The translations under genes were made by a program, and so were the position numbers. The notes under the pieces are model-generated. The model was not told where the DNA came from. It did no database searches and saw only the letters and a program-made list of their open reading frames with translations. From sequence record OZ346219.1: DNA of 64,000 nucleotides; one strand, written 5' to 3'. Shown piece after piece: positions 1 through 55,180 of the stretch (the stretch's first letter is position 1; every line of letters starts with the position of its first letter). Origin of the DNA: a phage.

Positions 1-2817
<2,817 letters not shown>

Positions 2818-11389: not shown

Positions 11390-11542
11390 ATGAGTAAGAA
11401 AGAAAACAGCTATGTTATGACTCGTAAGGAATACAACGAATTGATGTTAGCATTAGCTTATGCAATTATTCGTTCTGATCATGCAATTAATCTGGTAAAC
11501 AAAGTTAACCGTAGCGTTGATAATGTTTCTAGGAAGAAGTAA
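11390..11542 (+). CDS. small hypothetical protein (50 aa)
   Basis: ATG preceded by aaggagg RBS; MSKKENSYVMTRKEYNELMLALAYAIIRSDHAINLVNKVNRSVDNVSRKK. Confidence 0.35.
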   Translation: MSKKENSYVMTRKEYNELMLALAYAIIRSDHAINLVNKVNRSVDNVSRKK

Positions 11543-11582
11543 GTTTATTTTTTGGAATCCTTTGGATTCCTTTTTCTTTTTG

Positions 11583-11590
11583 TATAAATA
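11583..11590 (+). promoter_or_regulatory. T4-type late promoter (TATAAATA) upstream of gene 24
   Basis: TATAAATA 38 nt upstream of the gp24 ATG. Confidence 0.55.
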
Positions 11591-11627
11591 TGATATATCC
11601 ATTAAGGCAAATACAGGATTCATAAAC

Positions 11628-12869
11628 ATGACTCATATTTTTACTGAACTGTTGCGGGAATCTACTTCCTCAGTAGCTAACCAGACAGCGCGACCGCAAC
11701 TATTATCATTAACTCGCGCGGTAAACAACCTGATTTTCTCTGATCTGGTAGCAATCCAGCCAACGGATCAACCAGTATCTGCATTGTACGGCCTACGTTA
11801 TCTTAATCATGATGGTCAGATGACTTTCCGAACTGCTGCAACCTACGGTGGCGCGGTTGGTGATCGCACAGAGATTGAAGAGTTTTCAAAAGAAAAATCT
11901 TATGACGAAGGCGCACTATTCAAATCAGGCGATGTTGTATACGAAGTTGTGACAGCTGGTACAGTCGGTGAAGATGCCGCAACTCCAGAAGCTGCGATCT
12001 TTAAAGGCGTAATGACAAACAAAATTCGTTTCTATAGCGATTGTGCATCGGTAGAATACTTTGAAGATAAAAACACCGAAATTGCGTCTACCTCTATGCA
12101 GTTTGACAAGTGGCAAGTTAATGTAGGTTCTCGTAAACTGAAAACCTCATTCACGACCGAATTGATGCAGGATCTTGAGGCAAGCCAAATCAACTCTGAA
12201 AACTCTGTAATTGATCTTCTGGCTACTGTTGCTTCCGAAGAGATCAACAAAGATATTATTCAGAAGTTGATCACTGTATCATCTCGCTATAAAATTAAAG
12301 GGATCACCCCTGATGGCGTACTTTCTCTCGTTAGCGTTCAGGATGCACCAACACAAGCGCGTGAACTTTACCGCTACGCGTGCGAGATGAGCAATCAAAT
12401 GTTGCGGACTTCCTCCTTTGCTGGTACATACGTTTTGGCGTCTTCTCGCGTGGTTGGCCTCCTGCAATCATCCGGTTGGATGGAAGAAACCGACAATGCT
12501 CTAAGCGAAGGTCGTCTACGTTGCGGTCTGGAAGTGTACGCAGACACGACAACACCTTTCGATTATATGCTCGTTGGTTGTAAGCACATGATCGGTGATA
12601 TGGAGAGTGTAGGTTCTCTGTTCTACTCCCCATATACAGAAGCCGACGGCGCTGGCGCGTATAAGAGCGTAATTGACCCTAATAGCTTCCAGCATCATGT
12701 AGCTATTATGAATCGTTATTCACTATCTGTCAACCCATACACATCAAAAGTTGATCAGGAAGAACACCAGGTCATCAAGGGTGACGATTGGGGTAAAATG
12801 GCTGGACGTTCAGAAATGTCCTACATTTTAGGAATCGAACTGCCACCGCTTGAGATTGACAACGCTTAA
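11628..12869 (+). CDS. 24: capsid vertex protein gp24
   Basis: start set at MTHIFTELLRE (track ORF begins 11517); LTRA...DLVA.Q.T.QPV.A, KWQ..V.SRKLKT, MAGRSE match T4 gp24. Confidence 0.9.
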   Translation: MTHIFTELLRESTSSVANQTARPQLLSLTRAVNNLIFSDLVAIQPTDQPVSALYGLRYLNHDGQMTFRTAATYGGAVGDRTEIEEFSKEKSYDEGALFKSGDVVYEVVTAGTVGEDAATPEAAIFKGVMTNKIRFYSDCASVEYFEDKNTEIASTSMQFDKWQVNVGSRKLKTSFTTELMQDLEASQINSENSVIDLLATVASEEINKDIIQKLITVSSRYKIKGITPDGVLSLVSVQDAPTQARELYRYACEMSNQMLRTSSFAGTYVLASSRVVGLLQSSGWMEETDNALSEGRLRCGLEVYADTTTPFDYMLVGCKHMIGDMESVGSLFYSPYTEADGAGAYKSVIDPNSFQHHVAIMNRYSLSVNPYTSKVDQEEHQVIKGDDWGKMAGRSEMSYILGIELPPLEIDNA

Positions 12870-13457
12870 CTAAATATCTAACCAAGACAAGTCAGATCCG
12901 CCCAAGATTTTTTCGACGGCGGATCTATTTTCTTGATGATATAAGTTAAAACATGGTATCCCATGTCTACGGGCAACATAAACAGCAATTCTAGTTCCTC
13001 CAGAAACAATCCCATTAACTTCTTTCGCCCAAAATAACACACAATCTACAGGATCATCAAGTGTCTCACCTAAGACTTGAGCAACATTTCTAGAAAACAG
13101 ATTTTGCATGTATAACGGTATAGAACGAGGATTATCATAAACGTGTTCTAATTCATCCATCGCCAGATTTTTTTGTTCTAAGGTTTGCCATGCAATCACA
13201 TCATGACCGTTATGTTTGTGGTCATAAAACTTCCAATTTGGAATGAAAATTTTTCTATAATCTGGATCGTAATACTTCATGAAAGCATTGTCCATACCGT
13301 AAGCCCCTCCAGAATGCGCTACAACGCGATTTTCTGACAATACCCTCCCAATGGTACTAGCCATTATCAAAATGTCGCTAGGCGCTTTTCTAGAGCCGAT
13401 TAAAGCACATCTACGAAGTGGTTTTACTCCAAATAGATCTTGTAACTGGTCAAACAT
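12870..13457 (-). CDS. SLOG-superfamily (DprA/LOG-like) Rossmann-fold protein
   Basis: 195 aa; CALIGSR...VAHSGGAYGMD and IVSGGTRIAVYVA resemble the glycine-rich motifs of DprA/LOG proteins; RBS ggagg. Confidence 0.55.
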   Translation of the reverse strand: MFDQLQDLFGVKPLRRCALIGSRKAPSDILIMASTIGRVLSENRVVAHSGGAYGMDNAFMKYYDPDYRKIFIPNWKFYDHKHNGHDVIAWQTLEQKNLAMDELEHVYDNPRSIPLYMQNLFSRNVAQVLGETLDDPVDCVLFWAKEVNGIVSGGTRIAVYVARRHGIPCFNLYHQENRSAVEKILGGSDLSWLDI

Positions 13458-13610
13458 AATATTTCCTCCATAGAAAGCAATATCATACTACAAGTTAATA
13501 ACAAATACAAGTATCCGCGTAGCGGAAGCGAGCACAGCGAGCATTAAAAACACTTCCAGTAATTGATTAATAAATGTTCGAAACAAATTTTTATTATTCT
13601 ATAAGATAAG

Positions 13611-13785
13611 TCTTCGTTTTGATCATAATTTAATCATACATGTAAAAACTACACAAAAGGATATCGCTTCGCGAACTCCTACGGAGTATAACATTTGTGT
13701 TACAATATGTAGTGATTAATAATTAACCAAAGATACATTTTCTATGTTCTAAAGATCTTTCTTCGTTTTGATCATAATTTAATCA
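13611..13785. repeat. two 26-bp direct repeats in an AT-rich 410-bp intergenic region
   Basis: tcttcgttttgatcataatttaatca at 13611-13636 and 13760-13785. Confidence 0.7.
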
Positions 13786-13838
13786 AACAGTATTAATATT
13801 GTGCACATGTAAACTAAAATTATGTTAATAACATATAC

Positions 13839-13863
13839 AAAAAAGCCGCCCCGAAGGACGGCT
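13839..13863 (-). terminator. rho-independent terminator (leftward)
   Basis: A-run then agccg..ccccgaagg..cggct hairpin on + strand, i.e. hairpin plus T-run on - strand, just 3' of ORF 13872-14309. Confidence 0.6.
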
Positions 13864-13871
13864 AATGTTAA

Positions 13872-14309
13872 TTATTTGTTGATAACGATCTGATTTCGGC
13901 GAATGGTAACATTACTCTTAGAGATGATCAGATCATCCGGCACTACGTTAGTTTTGTATGGTTGGAAGCGAACAAGCATCTGATTGCGTTTAGACCCTTC
14001 CTTAATCTTGATTTCCATCTGAATATTGTTGCCTACGTGAGCAACCGCAATTTCACCTTTATTCTCATAGACCCACTTGCTGGTAACGTCTCCCGCAAAA
14101 GCCTTAATAACTTGCAATGCTTCGTCGTATGCGGTAGAGCTGTGAACTTTCAGAAGGCCAGCCGTAGCAAGACGGGAGCAAGTGATCGCCGGAGATTGCC
14201 AAACATCAACATTAATTTGCTCAATCAGCGTAACACCGCCCTGATCAACTGCTTTGAATGCTTCGAACATTGCCTTTTTCATTGCTACGTGGTTTTTACG
14301 GAATTTCAT
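13872..14309 (-). CDS. hypothetical protein (145 aa)
   Basis: ORF with terminator downstream; no recognised motif. Confidence 0.55.
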   Translation of the reverse strand: MKFRKNHVAMKKAMFEAFKAVDQGGVTLIEQINVDVWQSPAITCSRLATAGLLKVHSSTAYDEALQVIKAFAGDVTSKWVYENKGEIAVAHVGNNIQMEIKIKEGSKRNQMLVRFQPYKTNVVPDDLIISKSNVTIRRNQIVINK

Positions 14310-14355: not shown

Positions 14356-14631
14356 TCAGGACATTGCCCGTTTGAATGCGTCCATTATAACAGTGTTATT
14401 TGGCATGTCAACACGTTTTTGAACTTTATTTTTAAATTTTTTGTTGATGTGGTGTTTACGATAAACAACCTTTTCACGGTTGGCGTAATCCTCTCGTGCA
14501 TCTTTTACCATCAACCATGCCTTAGCCGCATCTTGTCCGCTGATCCCGCCAATCTTTTTAGCAATATCAACAAAATTAAGACCGTGGTCTTCGCGTAGCA
14601 TGTAAACCATTAACGCTGTTTTCTTGTCCAT
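14356..14631 (-). CDS. hypothetical protein (91 aa; start at internal Met of track ORF)
   Basis: MDKKTALMVYML...; ATG overlaps the stop of the upstream ORF (ATGA). Confidence 0.45.
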   Translation of the reverse strand: MDKKTALMVYMLREDHGLNFVDIAKKIGGISGQDAAKAWLMVKDAREDYANREKVVYRKHHINKKFKNKVQKRVDMPNNTVIMDAFKRAMS

Positions 14632-14828
14632 CACTTCGCCCCATTGACGATTAACAGGATAGTGATCAGCACCGGAAACTGGATCATGATAGTGCCAATA
14701 AACCGGATAAATGCATTTTCTGACTTCCACACATGACATGCGACTAGCTGATAGACCATTGTTGAAACCAGAACTAGGATATAAACCGAAAGCGGTGTAA
14801 CTTCGATTAGTCGGGAAATCTCATTCAT
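14631..14828 (-). CDS. small hydrophobic (membrane) protein, 65 aa
   Basis: two hydrophobic stretches (LSVYILVLVSTMVYQLVA, IMIQFPVLITILLIV). Confidence 0.4.
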   Translation of the reverse strand: MNEISRLIEVTPLSVYILVLVSTMVYQLVACHVWKSENAFIRFIGTIMIQFPVLITILLIVNGAK

Positions 14829-14992
14829 ACTTCACCTCATACATTCATAAACACAACAACGAATAATACAGTAACAGTTATTAAAGCCATTTTCAACCCC
14901 ATATTCATAATATTTTCTTCGCCTCACTATGACAGTAGCATGTCGATGCGTGCCATTATAGGCATCTAAATCGCTCTGTCAAGCACAAAAAC

Positions 14993-54007: not shown

Positions 54008-55180
54008 CTCTTTTTCAAAAGATTTTACAATATACATGATAGTGCTCAATTCAGACGGCGCTACTGTCTCTGTGTAGCCGTCCGGCATATCTTCTTTTGA
54101 GATATAGGAAGTTTTACCTTTCATAGCTTCCTTGATCTTGTTCTCTAATTCTAAGATCTTTTGACCATCTTGTAAAGTCAATTCATAAAAGATCTCGTGG
54201 TCGAACTGAGATTTACTGCTTTGTTGTTTTAGTCTTTTGGTGGTATTAGAATTTGTGACCCCAAATTTTACCCCGATTAATAAATGCTCTTTTATTAATT
54301 TTTGAATATACAGAGTTCCTTTTTTTAATGGATTGTACCCATATTTTGCACATTTAGGACATCGAGTTCCGTTCTGAAAATCAGTTATTCTAGGACTAAA
54401 TCCATGTCCATGATCACATAACAACTTTAATCTTGTATTCACACCTTTCCATTCATCTACAAAACCATTACATGTTATATTTTCTTCAACGAAAATTGGT
54501 TTAAGTCTTTCAAGATATTCTTCTTTTGAACGAGCATAGTTTTTTGCACACTTAAAACAACGTCTTCCCGCTTGAAAACTAGATATAATTGGATTAAATT
54601 CATGACCATACTCACACAATAAATTCATTTTTGTTTTGTTGCCGTTCCATTCACCAATAAATCCGTTAAAAATTATGTTCTCTTTTATGAAAATTGGTTT
54701 AAATCTTTCAAGATATTCTTCTTTTGATAAAGCATAATTATGTGCGCATTTAGGACATCGAGTCCCTCTCCGAAAATTTGTTATTGTCGGTGCAAATTCG
54801 TGTCCTTCACAACACACTAAATCTAACTTTGTGAATACACCTTTCCATTCATCTACAAAACCATTACATGTTATATTTTCTTCAACGAAAATTGGTTTAA
54901 GTCTTTCAAGATATTCTTCTTTTGATAAGGAATAATTATGTGCGCATCTAGGGCAACGTTTACCTTTTTGAAAATCTGATATTCTTGGTGTAAATTCATG
55001 TCCTTCACAACACACCAAACCCAATTTTGTTACGTTGCCTTTCCACTCACCAACAAATCCATTAAATACGATATTTTCTTTTTCGAAAATTGGTTTAAGT
55101 CTTTCGTAATATTCCGTAGGACTAATCGAGTTGTATTTTTTCTTAACCCATTCAATCTCATGAGCTTGACGTACTAACAT
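53996..55180 (-). CDS. four-repeat zinc-finger protein with T5orf172/GIY-YIG-like C-terminal domain
   Basis: 394 aa; 4 x ~66-aa repeats (SKEEYLERLKPIF.EENI.CNGFVDEWKG..TKL.L.C..GHEF.P.I..F..G.RCPKCA.NY); C-terminal GTLYIQKL...IGVKFGVTN...TKRLKQ. Confidence 0.6.
   Translation of the reverse strand: MLVRQAHEIEWVKKKYNSISPTEYYERLKPIFEKENIVFNGFVGEWKGNVTKLGLVCCEGHEFTPRISDFQKGKRCPRCAHNYSLSKEEYLERLKPIFVEENITCNGFVDEWKGVFTKLDLVCCEGHEFAPTITNFRRGTRCPKCAHNYALSKEEYLERFKPIFIKENIIFNGFIGEWNGNKTKMNLLCEYGHEFNPIISSFQAGRRCFKCAKNYARSKEEYLERLKPIFVEENITCNGFVDEWKGVNTRLKLLCDHGHGFSPRITDFQNGTRCPKCAKYGYNPLKKGTLYIQKLIKEHLLIGVKFGVTNSNTTKRLKQQSSKSQFDHEIFYELTLQDGQKILELENKIKEAMKGKTSYISKEDMPDGYTETVAPSELSTIMYIVKSFEKELTA
54325..55126 (-). 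repeat. four tandem ~200-bp coding repeats
   Basis: recurring gaaaattggtttaagtctttcaagatattcttcttttga near 54490, 54700, 54890, 55085. Confidence 0.7.

Follow-up and report, generated by a model that had tools for sequence, protein, structure and literature searches.

The question raised by positions 13458-13871 of the window (that is, the whole 64,000-nucleotide stretch of DNA analysed here, whose source phage is an RB49-like Krischvirus) is what a gap of 414 bp between two genes may be for. The gap is non-coding, its GC content is 29.7% versus 40.6% across the window, and it is flanked by two minus-strand genes, a DprA-like gene (12870-13457) and a homologue of RB49 ORF165c (13872-14309), in agreement with the first-pass annotation, which had described an AT-rich, non-coding region between two leftward genes. 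GC skew in the window merely tracks gene orientation, and uvsY is found 5.5 kb from the gap. As read from the sequence, the gap contains, in tandem, two copies of a non-coding DNA module that is also dispersed elsewhere, to which its anatomy, dispersal, conservation and pattern of Fis-consensus matches all testify; from this evidence we infer Fis binding, transcription and any role in replication.

The 26-bp direct repeat reported at 13611 and 13760 is indeed perfect (TCTTCGTTTTGATCATAATTTAATCA) and unique in the window, since a search of the 64 kb at up to three mismatches finds no further copy (0 are expected in shuffled sequences). This 26-mer is the core of a 38-nt repeat (89% identity, period 149) and the left arm of an AT-rich unit of about 76 bp, present in the gap as two tandem copies, units A and B, of 19-22% GC each; the repeat itself is composed of the left Fis-type site and CAAAACGAAGA. 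Specifically, an exact match to the 15-bp Fis consensus GNNYAWWWWWTRNNC (PMC3302801 and PMC2816674) stands at either end of each unit, the two being inverted relative to each other, and the gap holds four of the six exact matches in the 64 kb, all within 220 bp. The right-arm site of unit A also fits the extended Fis consensus GNtYAaWWWtTRaNC (PMC2816674). Among relatives, the exact matches that fall in the homologous gap number 6/7 in L017, 6/8 in L024 and 4/4 in L029 (per relative locus). Across the Fis-type arms of 12 unit copies, G1, A5 and C15 are present in 12/12 and Y4 in 11-12/12, T11 and the W positions are kept, the N positions are free, and positions 2, 3 and 14 vary. The possible regulatory protein binding array of the earlier annotation thus gains computational support, in the form of four exact Fis-consensus sites and a conservation pattern that matches them. 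The centre-to-centre spacing of the predicted sites is 56 bp in the window, and 60 and 65 bp in L024. The Fis consensus is a degenerate one, and a phage-encoded protein of similar symmetry would yield the same pattern.

The module is not confined to this locus. At least four copies are present per Krischvirus genome, at least two of them beyond this gap, at the gene 35/36 and ORF130/gene 3 junctions (copies iii and iv), and all copies lie in late-gene regions (24/hoc, 35/36 and 2/3). It also occurs once in a prophage of about 35 kb in 53 E. coli genomes, to which unit A is 82% and unit B 78% identical, and there it adjoins an iteron array in which TAGTGTAGGTTT is found about nine times. This dispersal, both in the same genome and in E. 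coli prophages, had been missed by the first reading of the gap. No plasmid match was found for the prophage region, and a GTDB pattern scan returned only a chance match inside a coding region; the metagenome scan gave only two close relatives, the divergent ones coming from a protein search and contig look-ups. When scanned against PHROGs and Pfam, the proteins that neighbour the module in phage and prophage could not be assigned to replication or regulation, apart from an Ant/Rha anti-repressor and a weak DprA domain, and no Rep-like or regulator domain was seen in the gap's neighbours.

Conservation in related phages, one of the checks that had been proposed for this region, is found: in the core (13458-13818) 22 of 361 sites are variable, versus 170 of 646 third-codon sites of the flanking genes (Fisher p = 1e-16), a difference which indicates that the core is under purifying selection. 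In unit B only 1 of 73 sites varies across relatives, and the architecture of the gap is retained in relatives with an ORF165c protein that is only 56-58% identical. The spacer between the terminator and unit A has a diversity (pi) of 0.146, in excess of the third-codon rate; in the relative L030 a two-gene cassette is found between ORF165c and the stem-loop, that is, on the other side of the stem-loop from this spacer. The two copies within a genome agree over all 26 bp, although orthologous copies differ from one another.

Table 1. Features of the gap and of its two module copies (positions in the window; strand given where assigned)
Feature	Position	Strand	Basis
Unit A, AT-rich module of ~76 bp; holds repeat copy 2 (13760-13785)	13713..13788	-	Repeat search; nhmmer E = 5.5e-15
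Unit B, second module copy; holds repeat copy 1 (13611-13636)	13564..13639	-	Repeat search; nhmmer E = 4.3e-12
Fis-consensus site, unit A left arm (GATCATAATTTAATC)	13770..13784		Exact GNNYAWWWWWTRNNC match; per-column conservation
Fis-consensus site, unit A right arm (GATTAATAATTAACC)	13714..13728		Exact GNNYAWWWWWTRNNC match; per-column conservation
Fis-consensus site, unit B left arm	13621..13635		Exact GNNYAWWWWWTRNNC match; per-column conservation
Fis-consensus site, unit B right arm (GATTAATAAATGTTC)	13565..13579		Exact GNNYAWWWWWTRNNC match; per-column conservation
Sigma-70-like promoter, unit A: TTGATC-17-TATTAA, 8/12, weak -10	13768..13796	+	Read from sequence
-10-like hexamer, unit A: TAGAAC (TAGAAT in other copies)	13746..13751	-	Sequence; copies iii, iv and prophage compared
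-10-like hexamer, unit B: TAGAAT, 18 nt downstream of TGATCA	13596..13601	-	Sequence
Candidate promoter of DprA-like gene: TTGTAT-17-TATGAT, then GGAGG and ATG at 13457	13482..13510	-	Sequence
Hypervariable spacer, terminator to unit A	13819..13843		12% GC; 16/25 sites variable
PeSL-type stem-loop / intrinsic terminator of upstream ORF165c homologue: AGCCGTCC-UUCG-GGGCGGCU and T-run	13844..13863	-	Terminator scan
Mini-hairpin hp1 (ACTCC-GTA-GGAGT)	13675..13687	-	Hairpin finder
Mini-hairpin hp2 (TCGC-GAA-GCGA), core GCGAAGC	13664..13674	-	Motif count and hairpin finder
Conserved box GCTCGCTGTGCTCGC, GC-NNN-GC mini-hairpin	13528..13542	-	Alignment, motif count and hairpin finder
Mini-hairpin hp3 (TCCGC-TAC-GCGGA), terminator-like, T-rich tail; GCGTAGC on plus strand	13514..13526	-	Terminator scan
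GCGNAGC/CCGNAGG motifs in gap	13517 (+), 13666 (-), 13678 (-), 13851 (+)		Motif count

The units are followed by covarying GC hairpins of 4-7 bp with GNA-type triloops (GCGAAGC, CCGTAGG). Indeed, 26 of the 27 small hairpins counted across copies have loops of 3 nt, of which 22 read GNA or the complementary triplet; the 414-bp gap has 4 GCGNAGC/CCGNAGG motifs, compared with 33 in the 64 kb. The stems of hp1 differ wholly by lineage yet always pair (AAAATCC/GGATTTT, ACATGCC/GGCATGT, GTGCC/GGCAC, GCAACC/GGTTGC and GACGCTC/GAGCGTC), hp2 keeps its core GCGAAGC in nearly all lineages with outer pairs that covary (GTTGC/GCAAC, ATGC/GCAT), and hp3 shows one stem pair changed from C-G to G-C and a loop that flips between TAC and GTA. 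In L023, L027 and the prophage, the strand opposite the conserved box has GCGAAGC, and the terminator scan also called hp3 in L017, L028 and L024. The loop of hp1 is GTA in the window and TAC in copies iii and iv, the loop strand being inconsistent between copies, and in copies iii and iv hairpins are found on one side only. In several lineages hp3 and hp2 resemble ordinary small terminators, which would suit an RNA cassette equally well.

The larger hairpin, in which the gap had been said to end, is a real terminator (13844-13863, minus strand) with an 8-bp stem and a UUCG loop, and it is conserved in all relatives; but it serves the upstream gene, so that in the direction of transcription it marks where the gap begins and not where it ends. 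Its loop is of the RNA type, unlike those of the GNA-type mini-hairpins. It matches the stem-loops at 14991, 34166 and 55265, each of which is followed by TTGACA-17-TATAAT, as in the PeSLs of RB49 and phi1 (Arbiol et al. 2010; PMC2839356). In the gap, no near-perfect TTGACA-N17-TATAAT directly follows the stem-loop and faces an ORF, the best minus-strand match being TTTACA-15-TACTGT, and on this strand the promoter scan found no consensus promoter in the gap. The statement that this is not a promoter-cassette site was too strong, given a PeSL-type terminator and a repeat that holds a sigma-70-like -35 and spacer; a weak PeSL-like arrangement is also formed by hp3 and TTGTAT-17-TATGAT upstream of the DprA-like gene. 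In general, the module resembles PeSLs in being a repeated intergenic combination of stem-loop, AT-rich stretch and sigma-70-type hexamers at gene-content junctions. It differs in that PeSL promoters are near-perfect TTGACA-17-TATAAT facing an ORF, whereas the units score 6-8/12 and their better-conserved promoter faces away from the neighbours, and in that Fis-type sites and triloop mini-hairpins are features of the units, which have no sequence in common with the PeSLs of the window. Downstream of copy iv the phages diverge in sequence, as is seen at PeSL recombination junctions. Neither of the two PeSL papers (one of them PMC2839356) mentions the module, which is common to a lytic myovirus and a temperate prophage and adds, next to the PeSLs, another type of intergenic cassette that is shuffled between genomes.

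Sigma-70-like hexamers are found on both strands of the units, with -35 regions that overlap the left Fis-type site, and since one predicted Fis site covers the -35 and spacer, a plus-strand promoter would more likely be repressed. In the window's own clade these hexamers are weak (6-8/12; TATTAA, GTAAAA, TAGAAC), and the promoter scan called none of those in the units of the gap, nor the promoter of copy iv. Relatives carry TTGATx/TTGCTx-16/17-TATAAT at the position homologous to the unit A plus-strand promoter, with scores of 9-10/12 at this site in most of the divergent ones. On the gene strand TAGAAT is conserved in unit B of the window, in copies iii and iv and in the prophage, and on the opposite strand of copy iv TTGGTT-17-TATATT precedes the start of the divergent ORF130 by about 40 nt. 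At the promoter position of the DprA-like gene, relatives have TTGTTT-17-TATGAT, TTGTTT-17-TATAAT or TTGATT-17-TATAGT.

Several more familiar roles were considered for the gap. The first-pass annotation saw no convincing ORF, and this holds: a single ORF reaches 25 aa or more (13488-13586, minus strand, 32 aa, TTG start), and in most relatives a 1-nt indel in its T-run shifts the frame, on which ground it was rejected as a gene. The mini-ORF from the ATG of the repeat (MIKTKKDL...) and the ATGTTA frame before hp1 were likewise rejected, as they are protein-like in a few lineages but elsewhere show stops, no start or a change of frame; specifically, the 20-codon frame that opens at the ATG of the repeat is interrupted by stops in the window, and in L017, L028 and L029 it is shifted or without an ATG. 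Other genera pack rnlB or small ORFs ahead of the DprA-like gene; the strong conservation argues against a decayed rnlB or other pseudogene in the gap. A RegA-type or translation-initiation mimic (AAAUUAUGAU) was discarded since its ATG is not conserved in relatives, and inspection for a CRISPR-repeat mimic, type III antitoxin repeats, DnaA boxes and IHF sites gave no convincing matches. At the RNA level, Rfam 15 has no gathering-score match in the gap (the best are terminator look-alikes, with 24 bits versus a threshold of 95), nothing was found with Rfam in the relatives and the prophage, and a tRNA search of the gap returned none. For the small-RNA locus of the first-pass annotation the signs are mixed, with promoter-like hexamers, terminator-like hairpins and the covarying hp1-hp3 present, but in a unit that has no consensus fold. 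The unit as a conserved RNA hairpin was rejected, with 0 consensus pairs from RNAalifold over 12 copies, folding energies that depend on the lineage and neither strand steadily favoured. The units align free of gaps and yet have no consensus RNA pairs, which points to a DNA-sequence element.

The reading that we prefer, tentatively and with rather less than even confidence, is that the module may be a promoter-bearing unwinding element bound by host Fis, origin-like in the style of T4 oriF (ori(uvsY)) and oriG (ori(34)); a replication-origin-like element, as had been suggested early on, is compatible with the anatomy of the gap. Host Fis would bind and bend the unit, host RNA polymerase would initiate a short transcript within very AT-rich DNA, and the opened DNA, with the help of highly stable mini-hairpins of the DNA type on its exposed strands, would be an entry point for the phage replisome, so that the origin would be of the oriF/oriG kind, a promoter plus an unwinding element. 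Since hp1/hp2 and the box/hp3 are inverted copies that flank unit B, the proposed origin in the gap would be bidirectional. The T4 origins are also modules of about 100 bp in which a promoter for the host polymerase is joined to highly AT-rich DNA of unconstrained sequence, with several per genome, in late-gene regions, with a non-coding function and no shared iteron motif (PMC3016281). AT-rich, unconstrained sequence downstream of a putative promoter, as in a T4-type DUE, is found here in the AT-rich units and the hypervariable spacer, and the freely varying spacer downstream of the plus-strand promoter is as expected for a sequence-independent unwinding element (PMC3016281). However, the T4 origins are located within genes, no Fis sites or mini-hairpins are known in them, and they have no sequence or motif in common, whereas these modules are homologous copies with a predicted origin role. 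The positional parallel between the module loci and the T4 origins is loose. To our knowledge, the T4 replisome has no need for hairpin signals.

Parallels to other systems are partial. A review links ‘mini-hairpin DNA’ to priming sites of phages and plasmids such as G4 and RSF1010 ssiA (PMC13037366), and the ssi signals (G4 complementary-strand origin, RSF1010 ssiA/ssiB) do have GCGNAGC and CCGNAGG triloop hairpins in common with the module; in RSF1010 oriV, as here with hp1/hp2 versus the box/hp3, two inverted sets on opposite strands flank AT-rich DNA. Known ssi signals are, however, structures of about 40 nt recognised by specific primases, and in the module the loop strand is not conserved between copies. 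We know of no specific ssi-type primase in RB49-like phages. Clusters of Fis sites, such as the upstream activating regions of rRNA/tRNA promoters and the Hin/Gin enhancers, similarly hold several 15-bp sites in about 200 bp of AT-rich DNA beside promoter hexamers, and, as in a Hin/Gin-type enhancer, two predicted sites bracket a segment of about 70 bp. Fis sites are spaced by 48 bp in the Hin/Gin enhancers and stand in the register -71/-102/-143 at rrnB P1, neither of which corresponds to the centre spacing seen in the window or in L024, and there is no invertase or stable-RNA gene near the gap. Finally, iteron origins and operator arrays are also repeated protein-site-like sequences in AT-rich non-coding DNA, and the prophage homologue stands beside a true iteron array; the gap differs from such arrays, which have at least three regularly spaced direct repeats beside an initiator or regulator gene: its direct repeat occurs just twice, with a period of 149 bp, both copies are paired with an inverted arm, and no initiator gene adjoins it.

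The alternative with the best prospects, which we regard as possible though on the doubtful side, takes the module as a second class of promoter-terminator cassette with no replication role, in which the units are Fis-modulated sigma-70 promoters of a short RNA ending at the GC hairpins (~60-95 nt on the minus strand, ~50-70 nt on the plus strand) and/or drive or insulate neighbouring genes, the two copies in the gap being tandem small-RNA genes or ‘empty’ cassettes. The promoter-like sequence ahead of ORF130 in copy iv, the gene-strand conservation of TAGAAT, the terminator-like calls and T-rich tails of hp3 and hp2, the order of stem-loop, AT-rich stretch, -35 and -10, which mirrors PeSLs (PMC2839356), and the junction-like differences downstream of copy iv would all fit such a cassette. 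Less easily accommodated are the stems of just 4-5 bp, short for efficient termination, a putative unit A plus-strand RNA that would be mostly hypervariable spacer, hexamers that are weak in the RB49 clade despite strong conservation of the region, the fact that in three of four copies the better-conserved promoter has no gene on its strand, the lack of an Rfam match, and a GNA-triloop bias that stays unexplained at the RNA level. An array for a phage-encoded or other non-Fis protein, with the inverted TGrTTAAwwAwT arms as operators for the DprA-like and other neighbouring genes, would be suggested by arms conserved at specific positions and by the 26-bp identity within a genome against divergence between orthologues, as in co-evolution with a binding protein or gene conversion. 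However, the conserved positions coincide with the Fis consensus, its extended form included, no candidate phage regulator was found among the scanned neighbour proteins, and the element is common to an unrelated temperate prophage, which favours a host factor over a phage protein, and so we consider such an array improbable.

Two further proposals are weaker. As a cis-acting RNA (acting within a transcript that reads through to the DprA-like gene, as its leader, as a processing site or as an attenuator, with long AU-rich hairpins such as RNase III sites), the element would account for a minus strand that over the whole gap folds better than shuffles (z = -3.2), for the strong unit hairpins of L024 and L027 (z of -4 to -6) and for G-U pairs in the stems of unit B and copy iii; yet RNAalifold gives no consensus pair over the 12 copies, units of L017, L028 and L029 fold no better than shuffles with neither strand steadily favoured, hp3 and a candidate promoter intervene before the DprA-like gene, and unrelated genes follow copies iii and iv, all of which makes it very unlikely. 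Least probable of all would be a selfish or decaying element without a present function, either a MITE-like repeat with TGATTAA...TTAATCA ends or the remnants of deleted cassettes: dispersed copies, inverted ends, the prophage occurrence and copies at recombination-prone junctions are in its favour, but against it stand the strong purifying selection on the core and the preservation of orthologous position and architecture down to about 56% identity of the flanking protein, and no target-site duplication was seen.

Under the preferred reading of a Fis-bound, origin-like module, the finding would bear on T4-type phages that lack MotA. T4 uses MotA-dependent middle promoters, and RB49 is without MotA or middle promoters (PMC1524935). 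The most far-reaching form of the reading, which we hold to be rather doubtful, is that the modules may be the replication origins of RB49-like, MotA-less T4-type phages: Fis-assisted, opened by transcription, flanked by mini-hairpins, at three loci per genome and exchanged horizontally with an E. coli prophage. We know of no replication origins or post-early regulatory signals in the MotA-less pseudo-T-even phages. If the module is merely a promoter-terminator cassette, it would be a modest addition to the PeSL picture. A homologous, conserved, multi-copy module with predicted Fis sites provides three precise loci per genome for the study of origins, R-loops or small RNAs, and it suggests that a virulent T4-type phage may receive growth-phase input through Fis.

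The gap between the DprA-like gene and the ORF165c homologue (13458-13871) contains two copies of a conserved, selected and dispersed DNA module that carries Fis-consensus sites, promoter-like hexamers and covarying mini-hairpins. The window comes from a Krischvirus, an RB49-like phage of the T4 type; over positions 13300-14000 it matches phage FL37 at 100% identity and 59 Krischvirus records at 95-100%. The first-pass annotation described the gap as AT-rich, with a perfect 26-bp direct repeat and a terminator hairpin, and all of this holds. Specifically, its GC content is 29.7% (40.6% for the window), the two repeat copies are exact, with no further copy at up to 3 mismatches in the 64 kb and none in shuffled sequence, and the hairpin is a strong intrinsic terminator serving ORF165c. 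The PeSL (promoter-early stem-loop) cassettes at 14991, 34166 and 55265 have stem-loops of this same type, each followed by TTGACA-17-TATAAT. Further along, the window has a single 127-aa ORF at 14356-14739 where RB49, JSE and others have two, gp24.3/DUF2774 (91 aa) and ORF167c (65 aa); the difference reflects allelic replacement or fusion in the 24.3 region.

Features of the gap, its neighbours and the module copies found elsewhere
Feature	Position	Strand	Remarks
Capsid vertex gene 24	11517-12869		convergent, downstream of DprA-like gene
DprA-like gene (RB49 ORF164c)	12870-13457	minus
hp3 (small hairpin)	13514-13526	minus
AGAAG box	13528-13542	minus
Unit B	13564-13639	minus	~76-bp AT-rich module
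26-bp repeat copies	13611-13636, 13760-13785
hp2 (small hairpin)	13664-13674	minus
hp1 (small hairpin)	13675-13687	minus
Unit A	13713-13788	minus	~76-bp AT-rich module
Variable spacer	13819-13843
Terminator hairpin	13844-13863
ORF165c homologue	13872-14309	minus
Copy iii	between genes 35 and 36		terminator, unit, GTGCC-TAC-GGCAC, GTCGC-GAA-GCGAT, late promoter TATAAATA
Copy iv	between divergent ORF130 and gene 3
Prophage hairpins 1-3	after unit		GCAACC-GAA-GGTTGC, ATCCC-GAA-GGGAT, ACGCC-GTA-GGCGT
Remaining prophage hairpins	after hairpins 1-3		GCGAAGC core, GCGC-TTC-GCGC, ACGGC-TAC-GCCGT with T-tail

The view that the gap lacks a convincing ORF is borne out as well. Just one ORF reaches 25 aa (13488-13586, minus strand, 32 aa); it is called in PHANOTATE-based annotations, and was rejected as a gene because a 1-nt indel shifts its frame in most relatives. 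Database calls also reach into the gap in UPWr_E1 (L006 913-1629) and SSG23 (L007 1467-1628), as an extended DprA-like CDS or a 53-aa ORF. Such calls look like annotation artefacts, since they hinge on a T-run whose length differs among phages.

Conservation in related phages is found at two depths. In an alignment of 12 sequences (the window, ten relatives and FL37), 22 of the 361 core sites (13458-13818) are variable, against 170 of 646 third-codon positions in the three flanking genes (Fisher p = 1e-16), and unit B is the most conserved part (1/73). The spacer directly after the terminator has 12% GC and varies at 16 of 25 sites, far above synonymous sites among near-identical phages; it has the look of either a recombination junction or an AT-rich spacer free of constraint. 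Diverged relatives, recovered by protein searches and contig look-ups (ORF165c identity 92% down to 56%), share one order without exception: ORF165c, a long gap (326-592 bp), the DprA-like gene and convergent gene 24. Other genera lack such a gap; there the DprA-like gene sits close behind rnlB or small ORFs. The gap is functional, non-coding and old. On the minus (gene) strand the conserved order is: stem-loop terminator, variable spacer, unit A, AAATGTTA, hp1, hp2, unit B, AGAAG box, GCTCGCTnTGCTCGC, hp3 with a T-rich tail, TTGTAT-17-TATGAT, GGAGG and ATG. The duplication is not universal, as one relative (L023) carries a single unit. In an 86%-identical relative, ~180 extra bases (L017 2262-2440) separate the candidate DprA-like gene promoter from the start codon, and the protein has a short N-terminal extension (201 aa vs 195 aa). 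A metagenomic relative has a two-gene cassette inserted between ORF165c and the stem-loop terminator (L030 3439-4330), encoding a 197-aa protein (faint CapR and weak DUF723 matches) and a 73-aa ORF, with its own stem-loop, which fits PeSL-style cassette shuffling.

The module is also dispersed. A search of 5426 E. coli genomes found a 76-bp homologue in 53, 80% identical to both window units (13788-13713, 13639-13564). It sits in a ~35-kb prophage, in a 1.27-kb stretch that lacks annotation and separates an Ant/Rha anti-repressor operon from small unknown genes. A pattern scan of IMG/VR returned about 26 such prophages and two more copies per Krischvirus genome outside the window (iii and iv), both present in all 59 isolates; within the window a 13-unit HMM matches just the two copies (E = 5.5e-15 and 4.3e-12). 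Behind the prophage unit comes a series of GC-hairpins on the same strand, then an iteron array in which TAGTGTAGGTTT occurs about nine times (L033 6450-6590 in E. coli strain H2, ~120 bp past the module end, then AT-rich DNA), for which no plasmid homologue was found. The sequence downstream of copy iv varies between phages, with a homing endonuclease in some. The adjoining divergent ORF130 of Phi1 (L064 2498-2752) is an 84-aa gene.

Units of all lineages and paralogues align essentially without gaps, and RNAalifold over the aligned units gives zero consensus pairs; folded singly, units of some lineages give strong structures and those of others none, neither strand being consistently favoured. 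The constraint thus acts on the DNA sequence. At each of its two ends a unit carries a predicted site matching the high-affinity E. coli Fis consensus GNNYAWWWWWTRNNC (PMC3302801; extended form GNtYAaWWWtTRaNC, PMC2816674), so the 26-bp repeat amounts to the left Fis-type site plus CAAAACGAAGA. Of six exact matches in the 64 kb, four are here (13565, 13621, 13714, 13770), and nearly every exact match within each relative's locus lies in the homologous gap. Across 12 copies of the unit, G1, A5 and C15 never change, Y4, T11 and the W positions are maintained and the N positions vary, with R12 present in 12/12 right arms. Site centres within a unit are 56 bp apart in the window, and 60 and 65 bp in L024, a relative. 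A fifth match, GATTAATAAATGCTC (54275-54289), nearly identical to the unit B right arm, stands alone without further features of the unit and is probably intragenic. GATC is present in both copies of the repeat (13622-13625, 13771-13774). G2248 (L002) and PHB13 (L011) no longer have it in either, one copy reading GACC and the other GAAC; these different substitutions fall on an N position of the consensus and may help to escape Dam methylation or a GATC-specific nuclease.

An automated search confirmed hp1, hp2, hp3 and their counterparts everywhere. The hp1 stem differs in almost every lineage with pairing always kept (ACTCC/GGAGT, AAAATCC/GGATTTT, ATAATCC/GGATTAT, ACATGCC/GGCATGT, GTGCC/GGCAC, GCAACC/GGTTGC, GACGCTC/GAGCGTC), hp2 retains GCGAAGC with covarying outer pairs, and in hp3 one C-G stem pair is replaced by G-C and the loop is TAC in some lineages, GTA in others. 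Indeed, hp3 of L017 (2224-2236) and L028 (3807-3819) differs solely in a reverse-complemented loop (GTA vs TAC), a signature of template switching at a hairpin in single-stranded DNA. Loops are 3 nt long in 26/27 hairpins, and GNA or its complement in 22. GCGNAGC/CCGNAGG motifs are enriched (4 in 414 bp vs 33 in 64 kb). A 2026 review (PMC13037366) describes them as 'mini-hairpin DNA', exceptionally stable in DNA form and found repeatedly at priming sites of phages and plasmids, for example the G4 origin and RSF1010 ssiA. The true terminator, unlike these, has an RNA-type UUCG tetraloop; hp3 and some hp2 copies also scored as terminator-like on the gene strand. Since box/hp3 resembles an inverted copy of hp1/hp2, the two pairs flank unit B on opposite strands.

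Promoter-like hexamers occur on both strands, so the unit looks like a compact pair of putative back-to-back promoters whose -35 regions overlap the Fis-type site. Read on the plus strand, the repeat gives TTGATC plus spacer, and at the same place divergent relatives have TTGATx/TTGCTx-16/17-TATAAT or TATATT (score 9-10/12 in L017, L023, L024, L028 and L029); the window's -10s are poor (TATTAA 13791-13796, GTAAAA 13642-13647). In copy iv, TTGGTT-17-TATATT falls below the promoter-scan threshold, is correctly placed ~40 nt upstream of ORF130 and would be its only plausible promoter. On the minus strand, a -10-like TAGAAT lies 17-18 nt past TGATCA, TCATCA or TAACCA in unit B, copies iii and iv and the prophage (TAGAAC in unit A), and L027 has TTGAAC-17-TATAAT. 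RB49 is without MotA and middle promoters (PMC1524935).

We tentatively favour a replication origin: Fis binding and transcription in DNA of 12-22% GC would open the duplex, and the opened module would act like T4 oriF/oriG, which combine a promoter with an unwinding element (PMC3016281). This fits the location of all module copies in late-gene regions, the iterons abutting the prophage copy, and a spacer that is AT-rich yet free to vary. The promoters are weak in the window's clade, the hairpin loop strand is inconsistent, and the positional match to T4 origins is only loose, with uvsY 5.5 kb away. To our knowledge, no phage factor reads such mini-hairpins.

The main rival, which we consider only somewhat less probable, is a second kind of promoter-terminator cassette, making short RNAs or controlling the neighbours. 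An array for a protein other than Fis, a cis-RNA leader and a selfish remnant are less likely. The module is not mentioned in either PeSL paper or in the RB49 genome papers examined. Whether it acts as the origin favoured here or as a cassette, it would belong with known kinds of element, an intergenic regulatory cassette or a promoter-plus-DUE origin, and it offers sharply defined experiments.
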